NCBI GenBank assembly: GCA_963704885.1
Contig: CAVPIB010000007.1
Location: forward strand, 128,001-192,000
Direction: 5' to 3'
Length of the DNA: 64,000 nt
Source of the DNA: an uncultured Actinomycetes bacterium
GTDB lineage: Bacteria > Actinomycetota > UBA4738 > HRBIN12
Positions within the stretch are counted from its first letter, which is position 1, and each line of letters begins with the position of its first letter. This document shows positions 28,623 to 48,700 of the stretch, piece by piece. The notes beneath the pieces were generated by a model. That model had not been told where the DNA came from. It searched no databases and saw nothing but the letters and a program-made list of their open reading frames with translations. The translations under genes were made by a program, and so were the position numbers.

Positions 28623-29134
28623 GCGTCACGATCCGCGCAGCTGCCCCGAATGATGCGCGCGCGATCGCCGAGGTTCACGTGGCGTCTTGGCAGTGGGCCT
28701 ACAAGGACGACCTCCCTGCCTCTGCTCTCCAAGGTCGAACCGTCGATGACCGTGAGCGTCTGTGGATCGAGTGGTTCTCCTCGTGCGAGACGGCCGCGGA
28801 CGTGCTGGTGGCTGAGGAGGAGGGCCGCATCCTCGGCTTCAGCGGGTTCGGCGTCAGCCGCGACTACGGCGCGACCGAGGCGACCGGCGAGATCCGCACC
28901 ATCTACCTCCTAGAGGAGGCGGCGGGAAGGGGTATCGGCCGCGATCTGTTCGCCCGCGCCAACGAGCGACTGCGCGAACTGGGTTATGAGCGCGCGACCC
29001 TTTGGGTGCTTGAGACGAACGAACGAAGTCGTCGCTTCTACGAGAAGGCCGGCTGGATCTGGGACGGGACCACGAGCGCGCATCAGTTCGATTGCGCCAA
29101 CATGCCGATCGTTCGGTACGCGACCGATCTCTAG
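28619..29134 (+). CDS. GNAT N-acetyltransferase
   Basis: IRAAAPND, GRGIGRDL acetyl-CoA motif, N..SRRFYEKAG; GTGA coupling. Confidence 0.9.
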   Translation: MSVTIRAAAPNDARAIAEVHVASWQWAYKDDLPASALQGRTVDDRERLWIEWFSSCETAADVLVAEEEGRILGFSGFGVSRDYGATEATGEIRTIYLLEEAAGRGIGRDLFARANERLRELGYERATLWVLETNERSRRFYEKAGWIWDGTTSAHQFDCANMPIVRYATDL

Positions 29135-29136
29135 GA

Positions 29137-30372
29137 TCAGCCGGGGGGCCGGGCGCGCTGGCTCACGAGCGTCACGATGGCGTCCTCGATCTGGACGGCC
29201 TCGTCCTTGCTCAGGCCGGAGGACACGATCGAGAACGACACCCAGTCATCCATCCTGGTGGACCAGACCCATCCCGAGAGGGCGGAGATCTCGGAGAGCG
29301 TGCCCGTCTTCGCGCGAAGGCGGAGGTGTCCGAGCCGTCCCTCGAGCGTTCCCTGTCCGCCCGTGGGCAGCGCGAACCGGAGCTTCGGGGCCCAAGGCCG
29401 CTCCTCGACGGCCCACAGGAGCCGGACCATCCCCTTCGTGGTTATCCGGTTGGCGTAGGAGAGACCCGAGCTGTCATGGTGCTCGAAGCCGGGGGCGCCG
29501 TTCGCCGAGGTGAAGGCATCGATCGCCTCGGCGGCCGCGGCTATGGACCCGGTCCCGGACGCCTCGAATCCCAGGAGCTTGCCCAACACTTCGGCGTCGA
29601 AGTTGATCGAGTCGACGTTCATGCGTCTCGTGATCTGGATGAGTTCGGCCGACGACACGGTCGCGATCTTCAGTAGAGGCGCCTTGGGAGTGCCCATCGA
29701 CGGATCGGCGGTCACTTCGATCCCGCGCCGGCGGAGGGCCTTCGTCAGGTACGAGGCAGCGCGCAGCTCGGGGTCGTCGACGTGTCCACCCAGCGGACCG
29801 ACGTTCCCCCGGTATGTGAGCGCGGTGGGGAACGGGACCTCATCGGCCGTGAAGTAGTTCTTCCAGCCCTTGGCCCACCAATCGCGGGCGAAGGGCCCCG
29901 TGTCGCCGACGACCGAGCCGCCTACCTTCGAGATCCCGGCGTTCTCGACCTCCTCCGCCAAGAGGTCGAGCGTCGTGCGGGTCACCTCTGGATCGCCATG
30001 GCCGACCAACCACAGGTCCGCATCCAAGACGCCGTCCACAGGCTCGATGACCGCCATCGCTCGCGTTGCGATCCGTCGATCTGGATCGAGGGCCGCCAGG
30101 AGGGCCATGGAGAGCAGGAGCTTCTCGTTCGAAGCGGGGATCCGAGGCGCCGTTGCTAGATGCCGGTACCAGAACACTCCGTCGTCGCCGATCGAGACGG
30201 AGACCCGCGCGCTACCTACCAGCGCGTCGATCCGGCGCTGCCACCAGGGCTGCACGGTTCGAGCGGCATCCTGGTCGACGCCATGGACCGCGACCTGGGC
30301 ATCAGCGGGCACTCCGGTCAGGGCCAGCGCGAGGAGGATCGAGCAGGCGGTAACCAGGCGTCGGGCACGCAT
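29137..30372 (-). CDS. dacB: D-alanyl-D-alanine carboxypeptidase/endopeptidase (PBP4, S13)
   Basis: Signal peptide; PASNEKL (SxxK), GHGDP, DSINF (SxN), DSSGLS, AKTGTL. Confidence 0.9.
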   Translation of the reverse strand: MRARRLVTACSILLALALTGVPADAQVAVHGVDQDAARTVQPWWQRRIDALVGSARVSVSIGDDGVFWYRHLATAPRIPASNEKLLLSMALLAALDPDRRIATRAMAVIEPVDGVLDADLWLVGHGDPEVTRTTLDLLAEEVENAGISKVGGSVVGDTGPFARDWWAKGWKNYFTADEVPFPTALTYRGNVGPLGGHVDDPELRAASYLTKALRRRGIEVTADPSMGTPKAPLLKIATVSSAELIQITRRMNVDSINFDAEVLGKLLGFEASGTGSIAAAAEAIDAFTSANGAPGFEHHDSSGLSYANRITTKGMVRLLWAVEERPWAPKLRFALPTGGQGTLEGRLGHLRLRAKTGTLSEISALSGWVWSTRMDDWVSFSIVSSGLSKDEAVQIEDAIVTLVSQRARPPG

Positions 30373-30410
30373 GACCGGACGATGGTACGTGGTCGGGAGG
30401 GGCGACACTC

Positions 30411-33400
30411 CTACTGGCCGTGAGCCAGCGCTTCGACTTCGCTCTGCATCTCGAGGCGCTCGGTCAAGAGCGACCTCAGCGCCTCCGCTGTGAGGGGCCG
30501 GGCGAACAGGAACCCTTGTCCCAGGTCGCACTTAAGCTCGATCAATCGCTCGAGCTGGTCCGGACGCTCGATACCTTCGGCTATCGGCTTCAGGTTGAGG
30601 ATGGCCGCGAGCTCGATCATCGCAGCGGTGAGGGCCGAAGATTCTCCGCCGTCACCCACCTCGTCGATGAACGACTTGTCTACCTTCAGGATGTCCACCG
30701 GGAACCGACGCACGTAGTTGAGCGATGAGTAGCCTGTCCCGAAGTCGTCGATCGCGAGCAGAACGCCCAGTTCCTTCAACTGCCGCAGCCGTTCTATCGA
30801 GAGCTCCATATCCTGCATGACCATGCTCTCGGTGATCTCGAGTACGAGCCCTTGCGGCGCTAGACCCGTTTCCTCGAGGCTGGCTCGGACCTCATCGATT
30901 ATCTCCGGCCGCGCCAGCTGGCGGGCCGACAGGTTCACCGCCATGTGGAACGGCGGATCTGCTGGGAACGACCCCTGCAACTCGACCGCGAACCGTGTCG
31001 CCTCCTTCAGCACCCAATGGCCGATGGGCACGATCAGGCCGGTCTCCTCGGCGAGCGGGATGAAATCGAGGGGCTGGACGAGCCCACGTTGGGGATGGTT
31101 CCACCTGATGAGCGCCTCCACTCCGGTGATCCGCCCCGTCTCCAGCTCGATCACGGGTTGGTAGTGAAGGATGAACTCTCGACGCTCCAAGGCGCGCTGC
31201 AGGTCGGCCTTCAGCTCGAGGCGACGCAACGCCGTGTCGTGCATCTCCGGCTCGAAGACCTGATATCGAGCTTTGCCCTTCTCCTTGGCCATGTACATCG
31301 CTACGTCGGCGTTGCGGAGCAGAGTCTCCGCTGCATGTTCGCCGTCGCCGTCGCTCGCGCCCGCCACGGCGATGCCGACGCTCGCGCGCACGAATACCTC
31401 CTTGCCGTCGAGCAGGAACGGTTCGTCGAGCATCTGCATGATCCTGTCCGCCACGTCTGCCGCCTGCACCCCTTCACCGCCGTCCTCCAGCAGGATCGCG
31501 AACTCGTCCCCGCCCAAGCGCGCGGCGGTGTCAGCCGCCCTCAGCGTGTTCCGCAGTCTGTCGCCTACCTGGGCCAGCAGGCCGTCACCGGCGGCATGCC
31601 CCAGCGAATCGTTGATCGTCTTGAAGTCGTCCAGGTCCATGAAGAGCACCGAGAGGGTGTTCTGGCCGCGACCCTGACGCTCGATCGCGTGCAGAACCCG
31701 ATCGTGGAACAGGGCGCGGTTCGCCAGGTTGGTGACCGAGTCGTGGAACGCTTGGCGTTCCAGTTCCGCCTCGAACTGCTTGCGCTCGCTGATGTCTCGG
31801 GTGTTGAGCACGATCCCGTTCACGTTCGGATCGTGTAGGAGATTGGTCCGCAAGGTCTCGGCGAACAAGAAGTTGCCCGCCCGATGCTGGATGCGGAACT
31901 CCATCAGGCCGGTCTTTCCTTCGCCCTCGTCGATCGATGTCAGGAAGGACAGCACGCGAGTCTTGTCGTCCGGGTGGACGAGATCGATGAAACGCGAGCC
32001 TTCCAGATGCTTCGGATCGAACCCCAGCACCCGGTCGGCCGACGGGCTCGCGTAACCCACCGTCGTGTCTAGCTCGATCACCGTCACGACGTCGGACGAG
32101 TTCTTCACGAGCGACGCGAACCGCGCCTCGCTCTGCTTGGTCAGCAGGTCCTGGGTGAGCGCAGCGCTTTCGAGCGCCAGAGCGACCTGTGAGGACAGCG
32201 CCCGGAGGCTGTCGATCACCGAGGCCGGCATCTGCGTAGGCGTTGCCACCACGATCATGCCTTGGAACTGGTCGCGCATGAACAGAGGTCCAGTGAGCAC
32301 AGCACCCTCGGCTTCGGTGGACAGTGCCAGAGGTTCCCTCAGCATGCTCTCGGAGGAATGGACGATGTAGGCGTCGCGCTCGAGCAGCCGCTGTCGCTTC
32401 CACTCCTGCAGGATCGACAGCGAGAACCGCATGCCCAACACGTCGCCGGCCCCGCCGGCGGCGGCCACGACGACGAGCTCGTCGGCATCATCATCGGCTT
32501 CCTCGCAGAGGCGCACCGCGGCGTCTTGTCCCGCGAGCGTCCGTGCGGCCTGGATCGCCGCCTCGTGGATCGCGGCTCGGTTCGTGGCGGTCACGAGCGC
32601 AAGACCAGCCTCGCGCAACGCCCGTTCGCGCGCGGCCGACTGCTCCTGGGTCCTCACGAGTCCCGCCATCCGTGCGATCACCAGCAGGAACAAGACGATG
32701 GAGGCGGCGACGACCACGAGCTCGTCCGTCCGTGCCAAGCTCGCCTGGGGCGAATCGCCGAACCGCGAGAGCAGCACAGCCCCCGTGATCGGCGCGATCA
32801 GCGACACGATCGCCAGAACCGCGAGCCTCACGCCGGAAAGTGGACGCCGTACCTCGGTCTGTCGCTGCGAGAACAACCGTGCCTCCGGATGAAGGGCAGC
32901 CGCGCCGATCAAGAGATAGAACGCCGCCCACCCACCCTCTAGGTAGCCCGTCTGGTTGTCGTATCCGCCGTGTAGGCCTGCCCAGCCGTACGCGGCGTCC
33001 GTTACGAAGAGCGTGATCACAGCGGTGAGCAGCAGGTAGAAGGCGGCGTTCTTCCGCCCACCGCCCACGACCAATCTGATGGCGCCGGTGATCAGCATCA
33101 GGTCGACGACCGGGTAGCCGATCGCCACCAGTTTCTGCAGCGATGTCAGCGAGGAGTCATGGGTGTACGGCGCGATCAGGAATACCCAGGACAGGACACC
33201 AACCCCGACCGCGACGATCATGGAGTCGATCGCGCTATCGCGGTCTCGTCCTGGGGTTCGCCTTCGGATCAGTAGGAACAGTCCACCTAGGACGCAGGGG
33301 TAGACCGCTAGATACAGCACGTCGCCGATCGACGGGAAGGGCAACTCCTTCATGAAGAGCCGGTCGTAGTTGTACGTGATCACGTCGCCGGCCACGAAGA

Positions 33401-33599
33401 ACACCTGTCCGAGCGCGATCAGCATCCACGGCAACCTGTACTCCAACCGGTTGGTCCGAAGCGCCACCAGGATCACGACCGGCGACGACAGCGCGATGAG
33501 GTTCAGCACGACGCCGATCCGGAGTCCGGGAACGAACAGGAACATCAGCGTCGCGGCGACCCCCGCGGCGACGTACACGAGCCACGCCCGGCCTCTCAT
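30411..33599 (-). CDS. membrane sensor-GAF-PAS-GGDEF-EAL c-di-GMP enzyme
   Basis: Multi-TM N-terminus; PAS (VHPDD); DLDDFKTIND, RLGGDEF; YQP, EALIRW, EITES, DDFGTGYSS, KVDKSF; both catalytic sites look intact. Confidence 0.95.
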   Translation of the reverse strand: MRGRAWLVYVAAGVAATLMFLFVPGLRIGVVLNLIALSSPVVILVALRTNRLEYRLPWMLIALGQVFFVAGDVITYNYDRLFMKELPFPSIGDVLYLAVYPCVLGGLFLLIRRRTPGRDRDSAIDSMIVAVGVGVLSWVFLIAPYTHDSSLTSLQKLVAIGYPVVDLMLITGAIRLVVGGGRKNAAFYLLLTAVITLFVTDAAYGWAGLHGGYDNQTGYLEGGWAAFYLLIGAAALHPEARLFSQRQTEVRRPLSGVRLAVLAIVSLIAPITGAVLLSRFGDSPQASLARTDELVVVAASIVLFLLVIARMAGLVRTQEQSAARERALREAGLALVTATNRAAIHEAAIQAARTLAGQDAAVRLCEEADDDADELVVVAAAGGAGDVLGMRFSLSILQEWKRQRLLERDAYIVHSSESMLREPLALSTEAEGAVLTGPLFMRDQFQGMIVVATPTQMPASVIDSLRALSSQVALALESAALTQDLLTKQSEARFASLVKNSSDVVTVIELDTTVGYASPSADRVLGFDPKHLEGSRFIDLVHPDDKTRVLSFLTSIDEGEGKTGLMEFRIQHRAGNFLFAETLRTNLLHDPNVNGIVLNTRDISERKQFEAELERQAFHDSVTNLANRALFHDRVLHAIERQGRGQNTLSVLFMDLDDFKTINDSLGHAAGDGLLAQVGDRLRNTLRAADTAARLGGDEFAILLEDGGEGVQAADVADRIMQMLDEPFLLDGKEVFVRASVGIAVAGASDGDGEHAAETLLRNADVAMYMAKEKGKARYQVFEPEMHDTALRRLELKADLQRALERREFILHYQPVIELETGRITGVEALIRWNHPQRGLVQPLDFIPLAEETGLIVPIGHWVLKEATRFAVELQGSFPADPPFHMAVNLSARQLARPEIIDEVRASLEETGLAPQGLVLEITESMVMQDMELSIERLRQLKELGVLLAIDDFGTGYSSLNYVRRFPVDILKVDKSFIDEVGDGGESSALTAAMIELAAILNLKPIAEGIERPDQLERLIELKCDLGQGFLFARPLTAEALRSLLTERLEMQSEVEALAHGQ

Positions 33600-33645
33600 G
33601 GACCTTGTATCGACATGGAGCGGGAGGAGCCTTAGACCGTACGGC

Positions 33646-34998
33646 TCATCTGGTGATGTCGGCCGGATGGGGGATGGCGAATGCCTCGGTTCCGGCGGAT
33701 CCCTCTTCGTCCCCGGCTTCTTCGCCGGTCCGCTCGACATCGCGCATCCCGGGGAGGAACAGGAAGGAGAACGTGACGACGGCTCCCAGAACTCCTGCGC
33801 CGATCAGGGTGGCACGGGTGCCGATCAGCGCGGCCACTGGGGCCGTGAGCGCGAACGACAGTGGAAGCAACCCGATGGAGACGAACCAGTCGAGGCTGGA
33901 GACCCTGCCGAGCAGGTGACGGGGAACCAGCCGCTGCTTCGTGGTCGCCCACACGATCGTTCCGGCCGTCTCCAGTGCGTTGAACACGAAGCAGGCGAGC
34001 ATCGCCTCCCACGGCAGGTGGGCCAAGCCGTATCCGGCCACGGCGAGCGTCGAACCTGTCCAGGCCAGGTACATGAACGTCATGAACCGGCGAGGTGTGC
34101 CCTTCTGCCCCAGGAAGAGCGCCGCTCCGACCGCACCGACGCCGCCCATGGCCAGGATCGCCCCGAGGTAGAGGGGGCTGCCGCCCAGTTCGTTCTTCAC
34201 CAGGAGCGGCAAGAGCACCTCCTGAGGTCCGATGAAGAGCAGATATGAGAAAGCCGCGGCGACCAGCGTTCCCCACAACCACACACGCTGACGGACGAAC
34301 CGGAACCCCTCTCGTACGTCGGCGAACGCGGACATGCTGGTCGGGCTCTGCGGGCGTTCCAGCGGATGCGGGTGCATCGCCAGGATCGCGCCGATCGACA
34401 CGGCGAACGTGGCGGCGTCGACCAGGAAGGCACCACCCACGCTCCATGACGCCAGCCAGCCGCCGATGAGCGGACCCACCATGCGCCACGCCGCTGGCCG
34501 AACGAACTGCTCCACGGAGTTCGCCTGCGTGAGCAGGTCCGTAGCCACCAGATCGGGAACGATCGCGTCGAACGCAGGACCGAAGAAGGCCGTTCCGCCT
34601 CCGTAGAAGGCCGCCAGGACCATGATGTGCCAGACCTCGATCTGCTGGGTCAGGGATAGTAGGCCCATCGCCGCTACGGCGAGACCTCTGACGACGTCCG
34701 CCCCTATCAGCACGCGTCTTCGATCGAACCGGTCGCTAACCACTCCGCCTATCAGCAGGAACAAGACGTTGGGAACCGTCATGGACAACCCGACGAGTGA
34801 GAACGCCGTGGCGGCGTCCGACAGCTCGTAGACCTGCCAGGCCAGGGTGATCAGGAAGATCCCGTCTCCGATGAGGGACACGGTCATGCCGGACCAGAGC
34901 AGCCGGAAATCCCGCTGCCGGAGCGGTTCGAGGATGATGGGGATCCGCCGGCGTGACGGGTCCCCGCTCCCCCTTGGCTCGGGTGTCGTTGACCCCAT
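33646..34998 (-). CDS. MFS transporter (DHA3/macrolide-efflux-like exporter)
   Basis: RDFRLLW, GGVVSDRFDRRR motif A, F.VDAATF, LLGRVSS; about 12 TMs. Confidence 0.9.
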   Translation of the reverse strand: MGSTTPEPRGSGDPSRRRIPIILEPLRQRDFRLLWSGMTVSLIGDGIFLITLAWQVYELSDAATAFSLVGLSMTVPNVLFLLIGGVVSDRFDRRRVLIGADVVRGLAVAAMGLLSLTQQIEVWHIMVLAAFYGGGTAFFGPAFDAIVPDLVATDLLTQANSVEQFVRPAAWRMVGPLIGGWLASWSVGGAFLVDAATFAVSIGAILAMHPHPLERPQSPTSMSAFADVREGFRFVRQRVWLWGTLVAAAFSYLLFIGPQEVLLPLLVKNELGGSPLYLGAILAMGGVGAVGAALFLGQKGTPRRFMTFMYLAWTGSTLAVAGYGLAHLPWEAMLACFVFNALETAGTIVWATTKQRLVPRHLLGRVSSLDWFVSIGLLPLSFALTAPVAALIGTRATLIGAGVLGAVVTFSFLFLPGMRDVERTGEEAGDEEGSAGTEAFAIPHPADITR

Positions 34999-35110
34999 CG
35001 CTTCTTCCGTATCGGCCGTTCGGCGAGGCTCTTGACCCGGAGCGGTGTCGGCGTCTAAAGGCGGCGTGCCGCAGGAGTCGGTTCGTAGCCGTGCGTCGGA
35101 TCCGTGTGCT

Positions 35111-37258
35111 TCAGGCCGATAGGGAGGCTTCGCCCGACTGAGCGACCAGCGACCCGGTCCCTTCGTCGTCGAGCTTTTCGGGCGTTCCGAATGGCAGGTA
35201 GACGCGGAAGGAGGCTCCGCCTCCGTCGCGATCCTCCACCCAAGCTCGCCCGCCGTGCAGCTCCGCGAACCGGGTCACGAGCGAGAGGCCGATCCCCACA
35301 CCCGGGTTGTGAGAGATGATCTCGTCGCCCTGACGGAACGGCTCGAAGATGGAGTCGCGCAGCTCCATCGGGACCCCGTGACCCGCATCCTCTACGACGA
35401 GGAGGACGCTCTCGCCGTCGGTGGTTGCCTTGACCCATATCGGGGTGCCGTTCGGCGTGTAGCGGATGGCGTTCGCTACCAGGTTCTCCACTATGCGCTC
35501 CACCTGTGCGGCATCGACGCGTCCGGGGACGGGCTCGGTGGTCGTGAGCTCGATCGGGTGCGTATCCGTTGTGCTCTCCTGTACGACCCGAGTGAGGATG
35601 TCCAGCACGTCCACGTCATCCCTGTTAGGGGCGACGATGCCGCGCGACATGCGGTCCAGGTCGAGCAGGTTGGTCAGCAGGCGGTGGAGCTTGCGGGAGT
35701 TGGCGGCGATCCGTCCGATGAGGTCATGCTCGTCCTCCCGGGACAGGGATTCCTGCGTCAGGCTCCCCTCCAGCGTGAGCGCGCAGCCGAGGATGCTCGT
35801 CAGAGGCGTCCGAAGGTCGTGGGAGACCGCCTGGAGGAAGGAGTTCTGCATCTCCTGCAAGATCCGCAGTCCCGCGGCGGCTTCCTTCTCCGCGTCGAGG
35901 GCTTTGATCAGCTGTGTTTCGGCGAGCTTCTGCTCGGTCACGTCGTACATCACGCCCTGCAGGTTCACCGGGTGTCCGTCATCGCCCTCCAGAGCCTCTG
36001 CTTCCTCGTGGATCCAGACGACGCTGCCATCCTTGCCGACGATCCGGTACTCGCACTGCATGCGACTCTCGCCGCTCAGCAGTCGGAGCTCGGCGTCAAG
36101 CGCCCGTTCACGATCCTCCGGGAGGATGCGCTCGCGCCATAGTTCGGCCTGCCCCATCCACTCCTCGGGGGTGAACCCCAGGATCGATTCGATCTTCGGG
36201 CTTAGGTAGCGCCAAGCGCCGTCCTTACCGAACTCCGCGATGTAGACGACCGCCGGGAGCCCCTCGACCAAGGAGCGGTACTTGGCCTCGGCCTCTCGTA
36301 ACTGTCTCTCCGCCCTTCGGTACGCGCCGATATCCACCATCAGACCGTTCAAGCGAACCAGAACCAGGATGAATAAGAGCGCCGAGCACGTAGCCAGAAC
36401 AGGCCTGTCGACCGGTTCCCCGCGGGCCGCCTGAAGGATCTGGACGGCAGGGGCCATCAGTGAGGCTCCGGCCAGGATCACCAACCTGCGGCGCGGGTGC
36501 CGCAGGTCGGCCTCCGCCGTCGGCTCGTCCAGGTAGACCATGGAGCCGTGCAGGGCGGCGGCACCCCACAGCAGGTAGAAGAACCCCCAACCCAGCTCGA
36601 GCAGGCCGGTGGTGTTGTCGTAGGTCCCGTGCAGGAGGATGTACGTGTAGATCGAGTCCGTCGTGAACAAGACGGCGATCGAGCCGATCAGCAGGTAGAA
36701 GGCCGGAGTACGCCGACCGCGGTCGACCGCCAGTCGAACGGCCACGCCGAACAGGATCAGATCCATGATCGGATACGCCATCGCCGTGAGCTTCTCGACG
36801 AGGGTTAGCGACGGGTCGTGTGCGTAAGGCGCGAGCAGGAATACCCATGAGAGCGTGCCGACGCCAACCGCGATGATCAGCGAGTCGATCAGACTTGCGC
36901 GGTCGCGTCCCGGGCTGCGCTGGCGGACCAGCATCAGCACGCCCGCGATGAGGAACGGGTAGACGCTCAGGTACAGCACGTCGCCGATCGACGGGAACGG
37001 AGGCTCGGTCCCGAAGAACCGCTCGTAGTTGTAGGTGATCACGTCGCCGGCGACGAACAGGGCCTGACCGATGGCGACCAGGTACCAAGGGAGCCGCTGG
37101 CGAGGGGTGTGCATCCGAACTGCGATGAGGATCGCGATCGGCGCCGAGAGCCCGATGACGTTGAAGATCGGACCCACGCGGATGGGATGGACGAACACGA
37201 ACGCGGTCAACACCGCGCCGCCGATCGAGAGGTAGAGAGCCCACGCTCGAGCTTTCAT
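35111..37258 (-). CDS. membrane sensor-PAS histidine kinase
   Basis: Multi-TM N-terminus paralogous to that of the GGDEF-EAL protein; PAS; SHDLRTPL H-box, ENLVANAIRY, EDAGHG, IFEPF, GVGIGL. Confidence 0.95.
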   Translation of the reverse strand: MKARAWALYLSIGGAVLTAFVFVHPIRVGPIFNVIGLSAPIAILIAVRMHTPRQRLPWYLVAIGQALFVAGDVITYNYERFFGTEPPFPSIGDVLYLSVYPFLIAGVLMLVRQRSPGRDRASLIDSLIIAVGVGTLSWVFLLAPYAHDPSLTLVEKLTAMAYPIMDLILFGVAVRLAVDRGRRTPAFYLLIGSIAVLFTTDSIYTYILLHGTYDNTTGLLELGWGFFYLLWGAAALHGSMVYLDEPTAEADLRHPRRRLVILAGASLMAPAVQILQAARGEPVDRPVLATCSALLFILVLVRLNGLMVDIGAYRRAERQLREAEAKYRSLVEGLPAVVYIAEFGKDGAWRYLSPKIESILGFTPEEWMGQAELWRERILPEDRERALDAELRLLSGESRMQCEYRIVGKDGSVVWIHEEAEALEGDDGHPVNLQGVMYDVTEQKLAETQLIKALDAEKEAAAGLRILQEMQNSFLQAVSHDLRTPLTSILGCALTLEGSLTQESLSREDEHDLIGRIAANSRKLHRLLTNLLDLDRMSRGIVAPNRDDVDVLDILTRVVQESTTDTHPIELTTTEPVPGRVDAAQVERIVENLVANAIRYTPNGTPIWVKATTDGESVLLVVEDAGHGVPMELRDSIFEPFRQGDEIISHNPGVGIGLSLVTRFAELHGGRAWVEDRDGGGASFRVYLPFGTPEKLDDEGTGSLVAQSGEASLSA

Positions 37259-37293
37259 CGCATCCTTCGTATCGGGAGGCTTCGAGGGAGACC

Positions 37294-38667
37294 TTAGGCA
37301 GTGGAGACTGATGTGCCGGCTGTCTGCTTGAGTTGGAATCGATCCCGGAGCGACCCGAGGACCGCGATGAGCTGATCGATCTCCTCATCCGTGTTGGCGG
37401 CGGTGATCTGTATCCGGAAGCCAACCTCGTCCTTGGGCACCAACGGGTACGCGGCCATCGTGGCGTAGACCCCTTCGTCGAACAGGTATCGGCCGACGTC
37501 GTCTATCTCGTGGTGGTCTGTGAGCGACACCTCGATGATGGGGAACCCGCTCACGTTCGGGGTGCGGATACCCAGCCGGTCGAGAGCATCCAGCGTGCGG
37601 TGCGTCCGCTGCCACATGGCGAACCGGGCCTGGTCTCCGCGTGCGCGGTTGATCTCCAGTCCGGCGATCGTCGTGGCGAGGGATGCTACCGGCGAGGGAC
37701 CGGAGTACAGGTAGGGCGGAGCGAGCACCTTGAGGGCGTCCTTCAGCCTGGTCGGCAGCGCCAGGAACGCCAGCAGGGACGAGTAGGATTTCGAGAACCC
37801 GGCGACCAGGATCACGTTCTCGTAGCCCACGCCCTGGTGGCGGAAGAGGCTGTTCCCCTTCGTACCGTAATCACAGAGCTCGTCCGGCGAGCGTTCGCCG
37901 ATGACACCGAACCCGTGCGCGTCGTCCAGGTAGAGAAGAGCATCGTGCTCGATCGCGATGCGGGACAAGGCGGCGACGTCGGGCGCGTTGCCCGTCATGG
38001 AGTTCACGCCGTCCATCGCTATCACGCGTGGCAGCCCCGGATCGCTGGCTACGAGCAGTTCCTCCAGATGCGCGGCGTCGTTGTGCCGGAATCGCACGAC
38101 CCGCGCGCCGTGGCCGGCCGCCACCATGGCTCCGTCGTAGATCGTCTTGTGCGCCCTCCCATCGAGGAACAAGGTGCCGTCTCCAACCAAGACGGGGATC
38201 ACGGACATGTGGATGTGCGTGATCGTGGGGAGAAGCAGCACGTCCTCGCAGGCGAGGAGCTCGGTCATCTCCTCCTCGATCTCCTGATACAGGCGAGGAC
38301 TGCCGAGAAGTCGCGACCAACTGGGGTGGGTGCCCCACGCCGCCAGGTACTCGGGCACGGCGCTCATGATCTCAGGATCCAGGTCGAAGCCCAGGTAGTT
38401 GCAGGAGGCGAAGTCGGTGAGCCAGTGATCGCCGATCCGGATCCGCCGGCCGATCTGCTCGTCGATCACGGCGTCCACCATCGGGTGCTCGTGCTTCAGC
38501 CGAGTGAGGTCGGCGGTGGTCGCGACCCAGCGGTCCAGCCAGCCGTCGCTCTTCCTGCGTCGAGGCTTGCCGTTCGGAGAGGGCTCCACGGCGAGGTCGG
38601 TCGCCCTGCGCCGCGTCGCGGGAACGGCCCGCGGCTGGGCCCCGTGGTCGGTCGATGGGAGTTCCAT
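37294..38667 (-). CDS. alpha-oxoamine synthase family PLP enzyme (AONS/BioF, CqsA/LqsA-like); start uncertain
   Basis: DFASCNYLG, HKTIYDG, FRHND, DGVNSMTG, LDDAHGFG, GFSKS (PLP Lys), YSGP, RIQITA. Confidence 0.88.
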   Translation of the reverse strand: MELPSTDHGAQPRAVPATRRRATDLAVEPSPNGKPRRRKSDGWLDRWVATTADLTRLKHEHPMVDAVIDEQIGRRIRIGDHWLTDFASCNYLGFDLDPEIMSAVPEYLAAWGTHPSWSRLLGSPRLYQEIEEEMTELLACEDVLLLPTITHIHMSVIPVLVGDGTLFLDGRAHKTIYDGAMVAAGHGARVVRFRHNDAAHLEELLVASDPGLPRVIAMDGVNSMTGNAPDVAALSRIAIEHDALLYLDDAHGFGVIGERSPDELCDYGTKGNSLFRHQGVGYENVILVAGFSKSYSSLLAFLALPTRLKDALKVLAPPYLYSGPSPVASLATTIAGLEINRARGDQARFAMWQRTHRTLDALDRLGIRTPNVSGFPIIEVSLTDHHEIDDVGRYLFDEGVYATMAAYPLVPKDEVGFRIQITAANTDEEIDQLIAVLGSLRDRFQLKQTAGTSVSTA

Positions 38668-38779
38668 GGAGTACCCACATCGGCTCGTCTCGACCTCGAC
38701 TTTACGGGTTGCGCGGGGTGATGCCGGAACCACCCGTTCGAGGGGCCCGATAGAGTGAAGCCTCTGCCGTCCAGGAGGT

Positions 38780-40150
38780 TTGCGCGTGCGAACTATCGAC
38801 CGATCCAGGCTCCACGACCTGATGCAGCGTGAACGTCAGACGTTCCGCGAGCGACACCCCAGGAGTGGTGAGCTCTCGGATGAAGCCAAGGGTTCCTTAC
38901 TCTTCGGCGTTCCGATGACCTGGATGACCCGGTGGCCTGGAGACTGGCCGGTGTTCGTCGATCGAGCCGAGGGGGCTGGCTTCACCGACGTAGACGGCAA
39001 CCGATTCGTGGACTTCTGTCTGGGGGATACTGGTGGCATGGCCGGCCACGCCCCGAAGGTGGCGGTCGATGCCATCGCCGAGCAGGTGGCGAAGGGCATC
39101 ACCCTGATGCTTCCGACCCAAGACGCTGCTTGGGTCGGTCGAGAGATGGGGCGACGCTTCGGCGTTCCCTATTGGCAGTTCACGCTCACGGCAACCGACG
39201 CCAACCGATTCGTGCTCCGGTGGGCGCGCGAGCTCACAGGGCGCTCGAAGATCGTGGTCCATAACTGGAACTACCATGGCTCGGTCGACGAGACGTTCGC
39301 GACGCTGGACCCCGACGGGCGGGTGCGGGCTCGTGCGGGACTGGTAGGGGCGCCGGTTCCCCTGGACCTGACCACGCGCGTCGTGGAGTTCAACGACCTG
39401 GAGGGGCTCGAGGCGGTGCTCGCGCAAGGCGACGTGGCGTGTGCGCTGTTCGAGCCGGCGCTCACCAACATCGGCATCGTGCTCCCCGAACCCGGGTACC
39501 ACGACGGTGTCAGGGAGCTCTGCTCCCGGTACGGCACGCTCCTGGTGATCGATGAGACCCATACGATCTGCGCCGGTCCGGGGGGATGTACGCGCGCCTG
39601 GGGCCTTCACCCGGACATAGTCACGATCGGCAAGACGTTGGGGGCGGGGATCCCGAGCGCGGCCTACGGCGTGAGTGAGGAGGTCTCGCGGCGGATCGTG
39701 GGATGCACCGATCTGCCGCATATCGACGTGAACGGCACCGGGGGGACGCTCGCCGGCAACGCCCTCTCGCTCGCGGCTATGCGCGCGACGCTCGGTGGCG
39801 TGCTCACCGACCAGGCGTTCGACCGCATGATCTCGCTCGGCGAGCGGTTCGAGCTGGGCGTCGCCCAGGTGATCTCCTCACGGGAGCTGCCGTGGCACGT
39901 TACGCGACTGGGCTGCAGGGTCGAATACCTGTTCCGCCCAGACGCCGCCAGCGACGGAGCTGCCGCCGCGGCCGGGCAGGACGAGGAGCTGGACCCTTTC
40001 ATCCACCTGTACATGTTGAACCGCGGCATCCTTATGACGCCGTTCCACAACATGGCGTTGATGTCGCCTGCCACCACGGAAGAGGATGTCGATCGCCACA
40101 CCGAGGTCTACGCAGAGGCCGCCGACGAGCTGATCGGAGGGCATCGATGA
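38780..40150 (+). CDS. class III aminotransferase (glutamate-1-semialdehyde aminomutase-like)
   Basis: DVDGNRFVDF, YHGSVD, FEP, IDETHT, TIGKTLG, GTLAGN; RBS AGGAGG. Confidence 0.9.
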   Translation: MRVRTIDRSRLHDLMQRERQTFRERHPRSGELSDEAKGSLLFGVPMTWMTRWPGDWPVFVDRAEGAGFTDVDGNRFVDFCLGDTGGMAGHAPKVAVDAIAEQVAKGITLMLPTQDAAWVGREMGRRFGVPYWQFTLTATDANRFVLRWARELTGRSKIVVHNWNYHGSVDETFATLDPDGRVRARAGLVGAPVPLDLTTRVVEFNDLEGLEAVLAQGDVACALFEPALTNIGIVLPEPGYHDGVRELCSRYGTLLVIDETHTICAGPGGCTRAWGLHPDIVTIGKTLGAGIPSAAYGVSEEVSRRIVGCTDLPHIDVNGTGGTLAGNALSLAAMRATLGGVLTDQAFDRMISLGERFELGVAQVISSRELPWHVTRLGCRVEYLFRPDAASDGAAAAAGQDEELDPFIHLYMLNRGILMTPFHNMALMSPATTEEDVDRHTEVYAEAADELIGGHR

Positions 40151-40532: not shown

Positions 40533-40599
40533 GCGGGTACAGCGAGGGCGCCTATGAAGCGCCCGGGGTATCGTGGCGCCCGCATCCGGAGGGCTAGAC

Positions 40600-41610
40600 A
40601 TGGCGTACAAACGGATCTTGTTCGGTACCGACGGCTCTGCGGCTGCCCGGGCAGCCGGGGCAGTGGCCGCTGCGCTCGCGAAGGCGGGTGCCGCGCAGCT
40701 GATCGTCGCGTGCGCGTTCGACCGGCCGACGGATGCTGAGCGAACGGTCGGCGCGGCCGTCGAGCACGCCAAGGTGGCCGGCGTTCGTCGGGTCACCAGC
40801 GAGATCCGTGCGGGAGTGCCGGCCGATGTGCTGATCGCGCTGGCGGAGGAACATGACGTGGGTTTGGTCGTCGTCTCCGGGGGCAGCGGTCAGAAGTTCG
40901 GCCTTGGGCAGGTGGCGCACAGATTGGCGGTCAGGTCTACGCGCGACGTACTGCTCGTGGCGGGATCGGCGTCGCCGGACGGTTCCGAAGAGCCGGTCTA
41001 CCGCAGGGTCGCGATCGCCACCGACGGATCATCCACGGCCGATCGCGCGGCGCGGAAGGGGTTCGAGCTGGCCGAGACGCTCGGCGCGCCCGTCACGATC
41101 GTCTTCGTGGGTCATCCGAAGACCGGTGAGCTGATCTCTCAGGACACGATCGCCACATACGCAGGCGAGATCCCAACGGAAGTGATGCTCCGTGAAGGGG
41201 ACCCGTCGGCGCAGATCCTGGCCGCGGCCGACGAGGTGAACGCAGGCGTGATCATCGTCGGCAACAAAGGGATGACCGGCGCCAAGGGTTTCCTCCTAGG
41301 CTCGGTCCCGCACGAGGTCAGCGAGCGCTCCACGCGCGACGTGCTGATCGCGCGCACGGTGACCCAGGTGGTGTCCGAGCTCGGCCGCGGCGAAGGCGGC
41401 ATCATCGAACGAGCGAGCGAGAAGCTCGCGGTGAGCGTCGACGAGCGGGGCGAGCTCCACGTGATGAGCGCGCGCTGCACTCACATGGGGTGTACCGTCG
41501 CCTGGAACCCCGGGGAGCACACCTTCGACTGTCCGTGTCACGGTTCGCGGTTCGCTCCGACCGGCGAGGTCGTCAATGGTCCCGCCGCGCGCCCGCTGCC
41601 TCCGGCCTGA
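40600..41610 (+). CDS. tandem universal stress protein domains fused to a Rieske [2Fe-2S] domain
   Basis: YKRILFGTDGS and YRRVAIATDGS..VGNKG...LGSV USP repeats; CTHMGC and CPCHGS Rieske boxes. Confidence 0.88.
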   Translation: MAYKRILFGTDGSAAARAAGAVAAALAKAGAAQLIVACAFDRPTDAERTVGAAVEHAKVAGVRRVTSEIRAGVPADVLIALAEEHDVGLVVVSGGSGQKFGLGQVAHRLAVRSTRDVLLVAGSASPDGSEEPVYRRVAIATDGSSTADRAARKGFELAETLGAPVTIVFVGHPKTGELISQDTIATYAGEIPTEVMLREGDPSAQILAAADEVNAGVIIVGNKGMTGAKGFLLGSVPHEVSERSTRDVLIARTVTQVVSELGRGEGGIIERASEKLAVSVDERGELHVMSARCTHMGCTVAWNPGEHTFDCPCHGSRFAPTGEVVNGPAARPLPPA

Positions 41611-45642: not shown

Positions 45643-45727
45643 AGTGCCAGACCCACGACGGTAACGCAGTCGGTAGCCCCAGACGTCTGGCAGAATGGCG
45701 GCCTTAGGCCATCGACGCAGAGGCTAC

Positions 45728-48700
45728 GTGTCGAACGCGGCAGAACACGCAGAGGCGACAGACTCCACCACGCGCGCGGGCGACCGACGCGCCGCCCAAG
45801 CGACCTCCGAGGGCCGGCCCTCCCTGGCGCCGGTACTCGCGCTGATCGAGGAGCGAACCCCGGTCGAGCGGAGGGACGTCGTCACGGCGTTCGCCAAGGC
45901 ATACCTGCGAAGGCTGGGTGACGACGAGATAGACGCCGCTCCACCCGAGCAGTTCTTCGGCCTTATCCGATCAACGTTCGACTTCGTGGACTCCCGCGGG
46001 TCGCAGTCATCGGTGGTTCGCGTCTTCAACCCCGACCCCGCGACCGATGGGTTCGAATGCCCAACCACGGTGCTCGAATCGAACGTGGACGACTCGCCGT
46101 TCCTGGTGGACTCCGTGAGGGAGGAGCTGACGGCGCGCTCCATAGCCGTGCGCCGGGTACTTCACCCGGTGATCGGAACGTCTCGCGACGAGGACGGGCG
46201 GCTGGAGCGCATCTCGTCGGCGCGCGACGCCTCACGTCGAGAGTCCGTCATGCACTTCGAGCTCGACCGTCGCCTCGCCGGCGACGAGCGAGCCGACCTG
46301 CAGGATCGCGTCCAGACGATCTTGCGCGACGTGCATCTGGTCGTGCGCGACTTCGAGCCCATGCAGGATCGCGCGCACCACATGCTGGACATGGCGAGGC
46401 AGGCCGCCGTCCGTTACTCCCCTCAGGAGGTCGGCGAGACGGTGGACTTCCTGAACTGGCTGCTAGAGCTGAACTTCGTATTCCTGGGGTATCGCGACTA
46501 CGAGCTTGTGGACACACCGGATGGGCGTGCCATCCATGTGGTGCCCGGCAGCGGGCTGGGGATCCTGTCCGACGTGGGGCGGTCCACCTTCGCCGAGATG
46601 ACACCGCTCGATTCGTTGGAGCTCAGCCTGCGTCGTCGCATCGAGGATGGCGACCTGCTCGTCTTCTCCAAGACCAACGCCTACTCCACCGTGCACCGAC
46701 GGGCGCGGATGGACTACATCGGGGTTCGCCGTGTGAACGCGGAGGGCGAGATCGTGGGCGAGGCTCGGATGATCGGCCTGTTCACCTCGAAGGCCTACAT
46801 GGAGCCGGCTGCCAAGACCCCACTCCTGCACCACAAGCTGGAGCAGGTCCTCACCGCGGAAGACATGATCCCCGGATCGCACGACTACAAGGCCGCCACG
46901 GCCCTCTTCGAGTCCTTCCCGAAGGACGAACTGTTCCAGGCGTCGGCGAGTGAGCTCCGGAGGCTCATCACCGGGCTGCTGCAGCTCGAACGCCATGGTG
47001 GCATCCGCGTGTTGGTCCGTCGAGACCTGTACGGCAGGAGCGTCTCCATAGTGGTGGCGCTACCTCGCGACCGCTTCAACGCCGATCTGCGCAAGAGCCT
47101 CCAGAAGCTCTTCGTGGAGCGCTTCCATGGTTCGACGGTCGACTACCACTTGTCGCTGGGTGAAACCGAGAGCGCGAAGATCTTCTTCACCGTCCACGTC
47201 GATCCCGGCGTGCAGATCCCCGAAGTGCCTTACGAGACGCTCGAGGAGGAGGTCGAACGTCTCGCCCGCACATGGGACGACGATCTCCATGACGCTCTGG
47301 TCGATCGGGTCGGTGCCCAACGAGGCGCCGCTCTCGCCGAGGCGTACGCACCCCGCTTCCCCGACTACTTCAAGTCGAACCGGGACTGGACGCTGATCGT
47401 CGACGATGTGTTGTGCCTCGATGAGCTGGAGCGAGGTACGGAGGGGTTCCTGGTCGGGCTCGGCAACGAGTCCGCAGGCGAGCGCCTCACCCGCGTCAAG
47501 CTCTACAAGACGGGTGGCAAGGTCGACCTCTCGGCGTTCATGCCCATCCTGGAGGCGCTCGGCCTGCGCGTGGTCGAGGAGGTCCCTACCGGACTCCTGG
47601 GCGAAGGCAAGGCCTACATCCACGACTTCGGCGTGTTGGACTCCCGTGGCGCCGTGCTCGACCTGGAGCACAGCTCGGATCGGGTCGAAGAGTGCATCAG
47701 CGCGGTGTGGCGGGGCCGTGCCGAATCGGATCCCCTCAACCGGCTGGTGGTTTCCGGTGGCCTCACATGGAAGCAGGTGGGCGTCCTGCGGGCCTATCGC
47801 AAGTACCGCCAGCGCATCTCGCCGCAGTTCACCGAGGAGTATCGCAACGACGCGCTAGCCGAGAACGCGACGATAGCCGCCAAGCTCGTGTCCTACTTCG
47901 AGGCCCGATTCGACCCCGATCGCGGGTCGACCGAGGAGGAGCTCGAGGCGATCCGGCGTGACATCGTGAACGATCTCCGTCAGGTAACGTCGCTCGACCA
48001 GGACCAGATCCTGCGTCATATGCTCGGGACCATCCGGGCCACCGTTCGAACGAACGCCTACCTACCCGGTCGTTCGACCCTCTCGTTCAAGCTCCGGTCG
48101 GCCGAGGTGCCGGACATGGTCAAGCCGTTCCCGCTCTTCGAGATCTTCGTGTACTCCGCCGAGATGGAAGCGATCCACCTCCGTGGCGGCTCGGTCGCGC
48201 GAGGGGGCATCCGCTGGTCCGACCGTAGGGAGGACTATCGGACCGAGGTACTGGGTCTGATGAAGGCTCAGAAGGTGAAGAACGCGGTGATCGTGCCCGA
48301 CGGTTCTAAGGGCGGTTTCATCCTGAAGCGCAGCCCTGCCACGCCCGACCTGTTGAGGGCGGAAGTGACGAAGCAGTACATCGCCTTCATCCGGGGCCTG
48401 CTCGATATCACGGACAACCTCGAGCAGGGGAAGATCGTGCATCCCGATCGGGTCCGGGTCCTGGACGACGACGACCCCTACCTGGTGGTGGCTGCGGACA
48501 AAGGAACGGCGACGTTCTCCGACACAGCCAACAGCGTGTCGGCCGAGTACGGGTTCTGGTTGGGCGATGCCTTCGCGTCCGGCGGCAGCGCGGGGTTCGA
48601 CCACAAGGGATTGGGCATCACGGCCCGCGGCGCATGGGAGTCCGTGAAGCGGCACTTCCGCGAGCTGGGTATCGACGTCATGTCGACGCCGTTCGCCGTG

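Follow-up and report, generated by a model that had tools for sequence, protein, structure and literature searches.

An alpha-oxoamine synthase linked to a ten-helix membrane sensor domain and c-di-GMP enzymes: a candidate signalling module of Actinomycetota

The closest described counterparts of the locus reported here are the alpha-hydroxyketone signalling systems CqsA/CqsS of Vibrio and LqsA/LqsS/LqsT of Legionella, and RpfF/RpfR, which serves Burkholderia diffusible signal factor (BDSF) signalling in Burkholderia and turns a small lipid signal directly into turnover of cyclic di-GMP (c-di-GMP). RpfF belongs to the crotonase family and RpfR is cytoplasmic. In Actinomycetota, small-molecule signalling is known mainly from gamma-butyrolactone-type systems. 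Here we analysed a stretch of 64,000 nucleotides from an uncultured actinobacterium (contig CAVPIB010000007.1, positions 128,001 to 192,000; hereafter the window), in which the gene of an alpha-oxoamine synthase (AOS) adjoins genes for two predicted receptors with a common sensor domain of ten predicted transmembrane helices (the 10TM domain).

The initial annotation of this locus had proposed a signalling system consisting of a signal synthase, an exporter and two receptors. Four co-directional minus-strand genes are indeed present at the positions it gave, in the order AOS, histidine kinase, major facilitator superfamily (MFS) transporter and GGDEF-EAL protein, and its intergenic gaps of 35, 112 and 46 nt were borne out. 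As in CqsA/CqsS and LqsA/LqsS, a stand-alone pyridoxal 5′-phosphate (PLP) enzyme of the AOS superfamily adjoins a multi-pass membrane sensor kinase, here across the 35-nt gap. As in LqsS/LqsT, the two receptors have one sensor domain in common, and as in the CqsA/LqsA systems, dedicated acyl-activating genes are absent. However, membership of the CqsA/LqsA family (NF005526 / PRK07179) had to be rejected for the synthase, which scores 82.7 bits against a cut-off of 428 and is outscored on this model by the Kbl of the same genome (191.8 bits). Moreover, no CqsA chain is among the 41 PDB sequences that match AOS at E<=1e-10. PMC4821796 summarises the Vibrio receptor as a 6TM design, and the sensor described here, with ten predicted helices and no Pfam family, is set apart from it by description. 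Further differences are that the conserved receptor is a GGDEF-EAL enzyme and not a kinase as in CqsS and LqsS, that a fused form exists, and that the host phylum is Actinomycetota. The locus resembles RpfF/RpfR in that a synthase gene adjoins that of a PAS-GGDEF-EAL receptor, but differs from it in using an AOS as synthase and in the 10TM input domain of its receptor. By analogy, we propose that the module works like CqsA/CqsS, LqsA/LqsS-LqsT or RpfF/RpfR, the synthase being non-orthologous, the sensor domain new and c-di-GMP the primary output.

Linkage of the synthase to the 10TM domain

Comparative genomics brings a functional coupling of AOS and the 10TM domain close to established. Orthologous loci were obtained by a scan of species-representative genomes that gave 113 relatives, of which the best 80 loci (65-86% identity) were kept. 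Nearly all of these loci come from metagenome-assembled genomes (MAGs) of uncultured Actinomycetota, and most genomes compared in this work are MAGs; gene presence was called by tblastn and by Pfam on selected open reading frames (ORFs). A TM domain lies downstream of AOS on the same strand in 72 of the 80 loci (tblastn). At least 4.5 kb of downstream flank is available for 66 loci, and 62 of them have the domain on the same strand no more than 5 kb away, a recurrence that chance could hardly produce. The four misses are three betaproteobacterial contigs (L079, L083 and L092) and L077, where the end of an EAL-domain gene stands directly upstream of AOS at the contig start. When 401 Actinomycetota genomes were sampled, a full-length AOS (>=52% identity) was found at 36 places in 33 genomes, with a clear TM-domain gene within 6 kb at 33 of these places. 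At another place (L126), a weak, 28%-identical TM-like region was found on a GGDEF-EAL protein, and at the last two (G294/L122 and G206/L127) there was no TM-domain gene within 6 kb. Of 41 relatives, 20 have an AOS orthologue, which in G004 is in pieces; all 20 have the TM domain as well, and four genomes have the TM domain without AOS. Synthases with the WGTHPSWSR signature thus co-occur with the TM domain, which is what the initial annotation had suggested looking for.

The compared genomes are kin, so these counts overstate independence. They include six unpublished genomes (G008, G029, G154, G180, G265 and G057), on which the conclusions do not depend: G008 is one of the 20 AOS-bearing relatives and G154 provides one of the 33 clearly linked places. 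The loci L133, an unlinked row of the TM tree described below, and L156, one of 20 unlinked loci, also come from unpublished genomes. As a separate observation, in a genome of the same genus as the source organism (G004:C6:270348-272710) AOS is broken into four fragments and the adjoining 10TM kinase domain is fragmented as well, with two TGA codons inside one fragment; this reflects either pseudogenisation or an indel-rich assembly.

The gene order around the pair is variable. In 33 of the 80 loci, AOS is followed directly, with a gap of less than 300 nt, by a gene for a 10TM-GAF-PAS-GGDEF-EAL protein. Other loci have the order AOS, SDR, receptor (SDR in 19 loci) or AOS, TPR, MFS, receptor (a TPR protein in 20 loci), and in L124 and L125 the order is AOS, receptor, MFS, so that the GGDEF-EAL gene stands before or after MFS across loci. 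In another family (L119-L121, L123 and L128), a 10TM-HisKA_3-HATPase kinase precedes AOS. At L118 (3987-10806), a tri-domain protein of FAAL (AMP-binding), acyl carrier protein (ACP) and AOS parts, the last 40% identical to the window AOS, is divergently encoded from a 10TM-HisKA-HATPase-REC-REC-Hpt hybrid kinase, and a PALP-family enzyme is encoded downstream. Across these arrangements the constant partner of AOS is the TM domain and not an output domain. The leuA-like, GNAT, dacB and transaminase genes that flank the module are present, moved or absent among the loci, and because these flanks vary, the persistence of the AOS-TM pair is not merely frozen synteny.

The two parts are also found in a single polypeptide. 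In all four AOS-bearing Streptomyces-type genomes among the 401, one ORF of 1,507-1,720 aa encodes a 10TM-PAS-GGDEF-EAL-AOS protein. Pfam searches with two of these ORFs (1,532 and 1,635 aa) returned PAS, GGDEF, EAL and Aminotran_1_2 in a single frame. A database search confined to long proteins gave at least 120 clusters, and all those listed have EAL and Aminotran_1_2. Almost all of the listed clusters belong to named Streptomyces species, one of them (1,547 aa) labelled S. venezuelae, and the fused protein is named in databases only as 'aminotransferase class I/II-fold PLP-dependent enzyme'. Fusion of synthase and TM domain, the second outcome that the initial annotation had looked to, was therefore found in Streptomyces, and judged by its domain content the fused ORF unites both core parts in the manner of a Rosetta-stone protein.

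The AOS and TM-domain trees, both built with FastTree only, are roughly congruent. Linkage to AOS requires 10 changes on the TM tree (7 forced by starred branches), compared with a mean of 23 after shuffling, and none of 500 shuffles was as low. On this tree AOS linkage is strongly clustered, though not absolute.

Synthase, sensor domain and receptors

The family of the synthase was assigned by NCBIfam equivalog cut-offs, ranks of phmmer matches in the PDB and a FastTree tree rooted on unnamed Kbl-like paralogues. A Pfam match to Aminotran_1_2 (87.2 bits) and the criteria of the AOS superfamily (fold-type I PLP) place the enzyme in that superfamily, and it lies below every curated NCBIfam equivalog cut-off. 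It scored 180 bits for BioF (TIGR00858, cut-off 426.45), 141.5 bits for Kbl (NF005394, cut-off 460), 163.6, 155.6 and 121.3 bits for the serine palmitoyltransferases NF047599, NF047600 and NF047603 (cut-offs 500-670), and 118.8 bits for 5-aminolevulinate synthase (TIGR01821, cut-off 338.55). The genome encodes a second paralogue of the superfamily, which is 27% identical, adjoins tdh and reaches 483 bits on the Kbl model (cut-off 460). A profile search that covered all but 16 kb of this 97%-complete genome found no bioB or bioA above cut-off and no match to bioD, and the source organism may be a biotin auxotroph. The score below cut-off and the failure to find bioA, bioB or bioD make a BioF role unlikely for the window AOS. 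In a tree of 112 AOS sequences, a branch of length 1.26 divides the clade to which the window enzyme belongs (102 rows) from 10 Kbl-like paralogues. The curated cut-offs and the tree together set the enzyme apart from BioF and Kbl; grouping with true BioF, along with bioF complementation, was what the initial annotation had named as speaking against its proposal.

The WGTHPSWSR motif is invariant in 101 of 101 clade members (>=50% identity), and the PLP lysine K293 together with H173, S223, D249 and H251 (457-aa numbering) is kept in all of them. The closest solved structure is the broad-specificity AOS of Thermus thermophilus (PDB 7poa, 8s1y), to which residues 42-436 align (E 3.5e-41). In this alignment the PLP lysine, the substrate histidine and the Asp and His of DDAH correspond between the two enzymes. 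In contrast, the window AOS has WGTHPSWSR in place of the glycine-rich loop, the acidic Kbl-like motif FSMDGD reads NSMTGN, as it does within the clade, and AHGSG reads AHGFG. The Thermus enzyme is a metabolic BioF/Kbl-type enzyme without sensor linkage, unlike the window AOS. Its residues suggest that the window enzyme is catalytically competent and specialised and that its pocket has been remodelled.

The initial annotation had stated that both receptors begin with the same membrane domain, and the two copies indeed align over 333 positions with 165 identities (50%; BLASTP, E 3e-96); they are the only copies found in the 3.0-Mb genome. With the 10TM domain of the kinase, no Pfam family was matched at E<=10, MASE models included, and that of the GGDEF-EAL protein gave only two chance-level matches (E 1.3 and 1.4). 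Like the MASE1-9 domains, the 10TM domain is N-terminal and polytopic and precedes kinase and GGDEF/EAL outputs, but it matches none of the Pfam MASE models, even at E 10. An AlphaFold2 model from a 59-sequence alignment had ten membrane-length helices (pLDDT 90.9, pTM 0.88). Foldseek found no match to this model in the PDB at E<=1e-3. VIA-align superposed helices 2-8 on the 7TM bundles of G-protein-coupled receptors and rhodopsins; the best match (rmsd 4.1, 188 residues aligned, model residues 22-240) had a Z of 11.6, which is below the level of about 13 from which matches between helical bundles become informative. In the ESM Atlas, the domain falls among unnamed actinobacterial clusters, 28 of the 30 nearest lack a common Pfam family, and a lead to MASE4/MASE3 was weak (score 0.83, 139 shared features).

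The family is large: 9,425 representative clusters match it at E<=1e-3, and 1,020 still do so at E<=1e-30. It was found in 107 of the 401 sampled Actinomycetota genomes and in 72 of 252 genera. Its invariant polar residues include D72, D93, D125, D166, R175, D201 and H237. Assuming an N-in topology and the helix boundaries of the model, we infer that D72, D93, D166 and D201 are oriented towards the outer half of the membrane, where such Asp residues would suit a cationic head group. Several single loci of the family deserve mention. At L137 (15-5624, minus strand), the gene of a 10TM-PAS-GGDEF-EAL protein is immediately followed by that of a PLP-dependent decarboxylase (Pyridoxal_deC), another amine-forming enzyme. 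At L147 (4575-8282, minus strand), a 10TM-GGDEF-EAL protein ends in an Acetyltransf_6 domain (FemAB-like), a second enzyme fused behind EAL in this sensor family. At L130 (7061-12738), where AOS is missing, the syntenic position is occupied by a tandem pair of 10TM-GAF-PAS-GGDEF-EAL receptors, adjoining leuCD-like genes of the aconitase family and an IclR regulator.

The GGDEF-EAL protein of the window is a predicted c-di-GMP enzyme (Pfam GGDEF 148.2 bits, EAL 255.6 bits), and its GGDEF, RxxD, EAL and DDFGTG motifs can be read in the translation. Of the sensor-GAF-PAS-GGDEF-EAL architecture annotated initially, PAS, GGDEF and EAL were confirmed, and the GAF domain is weak (GAF_3, 26.1 bits against a cut-off of 27). 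We placed the start of this protein at M48 of the ORF beginning at 33740, which aligns with the N-terminus of the kinase. Downstream of AOS in the 80 loci, the TM domain was found in 72, GAF-PAS in 67 and GGDEF-EAL in 45. In the kinase, HisKA and HATPase_c were found by Pfam and the H-box can be read in the translation. None of the 49 REC matches of the genome lies in the window, and the kinase is therefore an orphan. It occurs in 8 of the 80 orthologous loci, and two TM copies occur in 7. Because its TM domain nests among GGDEF-EAL-type TM domains in the FastTree tree, we regard the window kinase as a secondary duplication, a lineage-specific second receptor.

The window MFS transporter matches Pfam MFS_3 (132.5 bits) and NCBIfam Tet(V) (255.7 bits, under the cut-off of 640). 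MFS_3 is found downstream of AOS in 31 of the 80 loci, in three different gene orders, and is a putative exporter of the AOS product and an accessory part. The four-gene layout of the initial annotation is thus present in the window and confined to a few genera. By the comparison of loci, the conserved core consists of AOS and the 10TM-GAF-PAS-GGDEF-EAL protein, with kinase, MFS, SDR and TPR as lineage-specific add-ons, and the window shows the form that a conserved actinobacterial module takes in this genus. A methyltransferase or an acyl-CoA ligase is encoded near AOS in L121, L126 and L127. An orthologue of the SDR was not found in the source genome, where the best match reaches 36% identity.

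On four contigs, each from its own Burkholderiales-type assembly, an AOS is encoded that is 65-72% identical to that of the window. This betaproteobacterial clade is nested within actinobacterial sequences (FastTree support 99 and 97), and the 10TM domain is absent from all four contigs. It looks as if a producer cassette with AOS had been transferred between phyla into Betaproteobacteria. AOS is found with MFS_3 in L079 and with TPR and MFS_3 in L092. A TonB-dependent receptor adjoins AOS in three of the four loci (L079, L083 and L110), and in L079 and L083 an ABC substrate-binding protein, a HAMP hybrid kinase and a REC-(PAS)-GGDEF-EAL protein stand beside it; in L092, these neighbours are an MCP and a CHASE8 hybrid kinase. 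Because TonB receptor, substrate-binding protein, kinase and REC-GGDEF-EAL protein adjoin AOS, this context suggests a secreted molecule that would be taken up or sensed, and that is again tied to c-di-GMP.

The coordinates are given in Table 1. The AOS ORF is also open from an alternative GTG start at 38733. The surroundings of the module in the window are of a housekeeping kind, with ilv/leu genes, GNAT, dacB, a class-III transaminase and a Usp-Rieske protein, and biotin, heme and sphingolipid genes are absent from the window, as noted initially. The divergent class-III aminotransferase (38780-40150; PRK07046, 649.5 bits) was considered as a core part and rejected because it is missing from many linked loci. 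The suggestion that dacB, directly downstream, might be an output found no support: depending on the lineage, it is found downstream or about 5 kb upstream, or it is missing, and since it moves or disappears we regard it as a syntenic neighbour, not a demonstrated output. A scan of 29000-39200 gave 0 promoter-like and 3 terminator-like sites, not above shuffled sequences. Two further genes are apparently no part of the module, namely that of the Usp-Rieske fusion protein (window 40573-41610, plus strand), which is near the module in many relatives, and that of a 1,632-aa NAD-glutamate dehydrogenase (window 45695-50593, plus strand). Elsewhere in the source genome (3.0 Mb, 20 contigs, 97% complete), divergent REC-gene pairs with near-identical scores occur on three contigs (C1:29154-29839, C12:9009-9694 and C13:7579-8264), which points to an element of at least about 1 kb that is repeated in the genome, or to a duplication made in assembly.

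Table 1. Positions of the module genes and their domains in the window, of fused ORFs and of betaproteobacterial AOS loci
Feature	Coordinates	Strand	Remarks
Alpha-oxoamine synthase (AOS)	37294-38667	-	ATG start; Pfam Aminotran_1_2; 457 aa
Histidine kinase	35111-37258	-	membrane region of ~310 aa, then PAS_3, HisKA, HATPase_c (Pfam)
10TM sensor domain, copy 1 (kinase)	36310-37258	-	no Pfam family
MFS transporter	33646-34998	-	Pfam MFS_3/MFS_1; EntS/Tet(V)-like
c-di-GMP enzyme (predicted)	30411-33599	-	10TM, weak GAF, PAS, GGDEF, EAL
c-di-GMP enzyme, 10TM sensor domain (copy 2)	32670-33599	-	
c-di-GMP enzyme, weak GAF and PAS	31760-32669	-	
c-di-GMP enzyme, GGDEF-EAL	30411-31759	-	
Fused ORF	L114:4062-8660	-	
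Fused ORF	L115:3465-8372	+	
Fused ORF	L116		
Fused ORF	L117		
Betaproteobacterial AOS locus	L079:7581-14617		
Betaproteobacterial AOS locus	L083:3672-15139		
Betaproteobacterial AOS locus	L110:2161-5654		
Betaproteobacterial AOS locus	L092:8407-19150		

Proposed mechanism and alternatives

Of the signalling system proposed initially, co-occurrence, fusion and the separation from BioF and Kbl have held, while dacB as an output and the four-gene layout as the core have not. We rate the chances as roughly even that the AOS product, tailored or exported in some lineages, is perceived by the 10TM domain and changes c-di-GMP turnover. AOS would condense an amino acid with a common acyl-CoA to a lipophilic alpha-aminoketone; the locus encodes no dedicated ligase or ACP. 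In sister lineages the product would be tailored, by the adjacent SDR to an amino alcohol or by a methyltransferase. It would then partition into the membrane or leave through the MFS_3 pump and bind to the 10TM domain, whose conserved Asp residues would, judging by the sequence and the model helices, lie in or near the membrane. Binding would shift the balance of GGDEF and EAL and, in this genus, also the autophosphorylation of the orphan PAS kinase with its duplicated sensor.

Several observations weigh against a receptor for the AOS product. The sensor family is far wider than AOS (107 versus 33 of 401 genomes, and 9,425 clusters). In the 20 TM loci that are not linked to AOS, the neighbours are diverse and none recurs, and the outputs are GGDEF-EAL, GGDEF alone, GGDEF-HD, hybrid kinases and HisKA_3 kinases. 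The invariant polar residues are equally conserved in these unlinked members and hence mark the family and not specificity for the AOS product. Moreover, receptors of 48-54% identity are kept in leuA-GNAT-dacB synteny in four AOS-less sister genomes (L129-L132). They nest inside linked clades of the TM tree, and therefore AOS was lost at least four times with the receptor retained; such orphan receptors evidently work without a home-made ligand. In the fused ORFs, AOS follows EAL at the C-terminus, where one would expect an output domain sooner than a ligand source, and the conservation of AOS across genera (65-86% identity) is more like that of a metabolic enzyme than of a fast-evolving signal synthase. 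Given the breadth of the sensor family relative to AOS and the survival of orphan receptors, the AOS product is put forward as the ligand only conditionally.

Alternatively, AOS could be an output or a co-regulated partner and the 10TM domain could sense a general, family-wide cue such as the state of the membrane or of cationic metabolites. The sensor protein would then control AOS allosterically, in the fusion, or via expression or c-di-GMP, and the product would be an exported effector. The place of AOS behind EAL, the width of the sensor family, its shared polar core and the orphan receptors kept after AOS loss all fit, as do the other C-terminal enzyme domain (Acetyltransf_6) of the family member at L147 and the REC-GerE regulator and kinases that flank AOS in L123. 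On the other hand, HisKA, HisKA_3, hybrid-kinase and GGDEF-EAL outputs would all have to converge on the same enzyme, although the TM domain is its only constant partner. The window kinase has no regulator nearby, and the betaproteobacterial AOS keeps sensory and uptake neighbours without a 10TM domain. We consider this explanation possible but rather improbable.

It is less probable still, and in our view unlikely, that the product of AOS is a long-chain base or aminolipid precursor destined for the membrane of the producing cell and that the 10TM domain keeps watch on this lipid, which would amount to membrane-lipid homeostasis by intracellular feedback and not to cell-cell signalling. Serine palmitoyltransferases are among the best curated and structural matches of AOS, the SDR gene that immediately follows AOS in 19 loci is reminiscent of a 3-keto-reductase step, a FAAL-ACP-AOS relative adjoins a 10TM kinase, and an acyl-CoA ligase and KAS are encoded near AOS in L127. 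The high conservation of AOS and a fusion that holds product and sensor at the same membrane would also agree with such a role. However, a core membrane lipid is hard to reconcile with the patchy distribution of AOS and its repeated loss among close relatives. In the loci examined, neither N-acyltransferase genes nor others for lipid assembly recurred, and AOS has moved to Betaproteobacteria with an MFS exporter and adjoins a TonB receptor there.

That last context, together with an EntS-type exporter model among the matches of the MFS_3 protein and the betaproteobacterial substrate-binding protein, would be consistent with AOS and MFS making and exporting a secreted metabolite, a metallophore or an antibiotic-like amine, to whose consequences alone the sensors respond. 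This is very unlikely: MFS is missing from 49 of the 80 loci but the sensor is nearly always present, no importer genes were seen in the actinobacterial loci examined, and the product of a single enzyme is an unlikely metallophore. Inherited synteny without a functional link, for which it might be said that many relatives share the synteny of the entire neighbourhood (leuA-like, GNAT, dacB, aminotransferase, Usp-Rieske), is already disfavoured and highly improbable, because the flanks change or vanish while AOS and the TM domain stay together, and their pairing extends over families with unlike output domains and culminates in gene fusion.

Perception of the AOS product by the 10TM domain can be extended to a wider picture, which we offer tentatively and consider, as a whole, rather less likely than not. 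The 10TM domain would be the receptor for AOS-derived lipophilic amines in a phylum-wide actinobacterial system that writes directly into c-di-GMP. SDR and methyltransferase would create chemical dialects, orphan receptors would eavesdrop, and in Streptomyces a single polypeptide, possibly of CdgF type, would form an autocrine unit that senses its own product. In Betaproteobacteria, a captured producer-exporter cassette would be read via a TonB receptor, a hybrid kinase and a REC-GGDEF-EAL protein.

Implications for Streptomyces and for actinobacterial c-di-GMP enzymes

In Streptomyces, c-di-GMP controls the switch from vegetative growth to sporulation, and the signals perceived by its c-di-GMP enzymes remain unknown, as stated in PMC6205966. 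The same paper describes CdgF and CdgC of Streptomyces as 10TM-PAS-PAC-GGDEF-(deg)EAL proteins, and CdgF of S. venezuelae as membrane-bound, weakly expressed and intact in its GGDEF and EAL residues, without a developmental phenotype and without a known signal. The core receptor of the window has the same domain architecture as these proteins, and the closest Streptomyces relatives of the window TM domain (E 1e-46 to 1e-61) are 10TM-PAS-GGDEF-EAL proteins. Unlike CdgF and CdgC, in whose description in the passages of PMC6205966 on these proteins no PLP or AOS domain is mentioned, the Streptomyces relatives found here carry a C-terminal AOS. The fused ORF may correspond to the CdgF class (vnz02140). 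Our literature search, with the supplements of PMC6205966 outside its scope, yielded no account of an AOS that is joined, by linkage or by fusion, to CdgF or other GGDEF/EAL proteins.

The comparison thus defines a new AOS subfamily by its diagnostic WGTHPSWSR motif and a large, unannotated family of membrane sensors with 9,425 representative clusters. The inputs of actinobacterial c-di-GMP enzymes are largely unknown, and the AOS product would be a concrete candidate input for the 10TM-GGDEF-EAL class, which reaches into Streptomyces. The fused Streptomyces form makes this hypothesis directly testable in a host that is non-pathogenic and genetically tractable.

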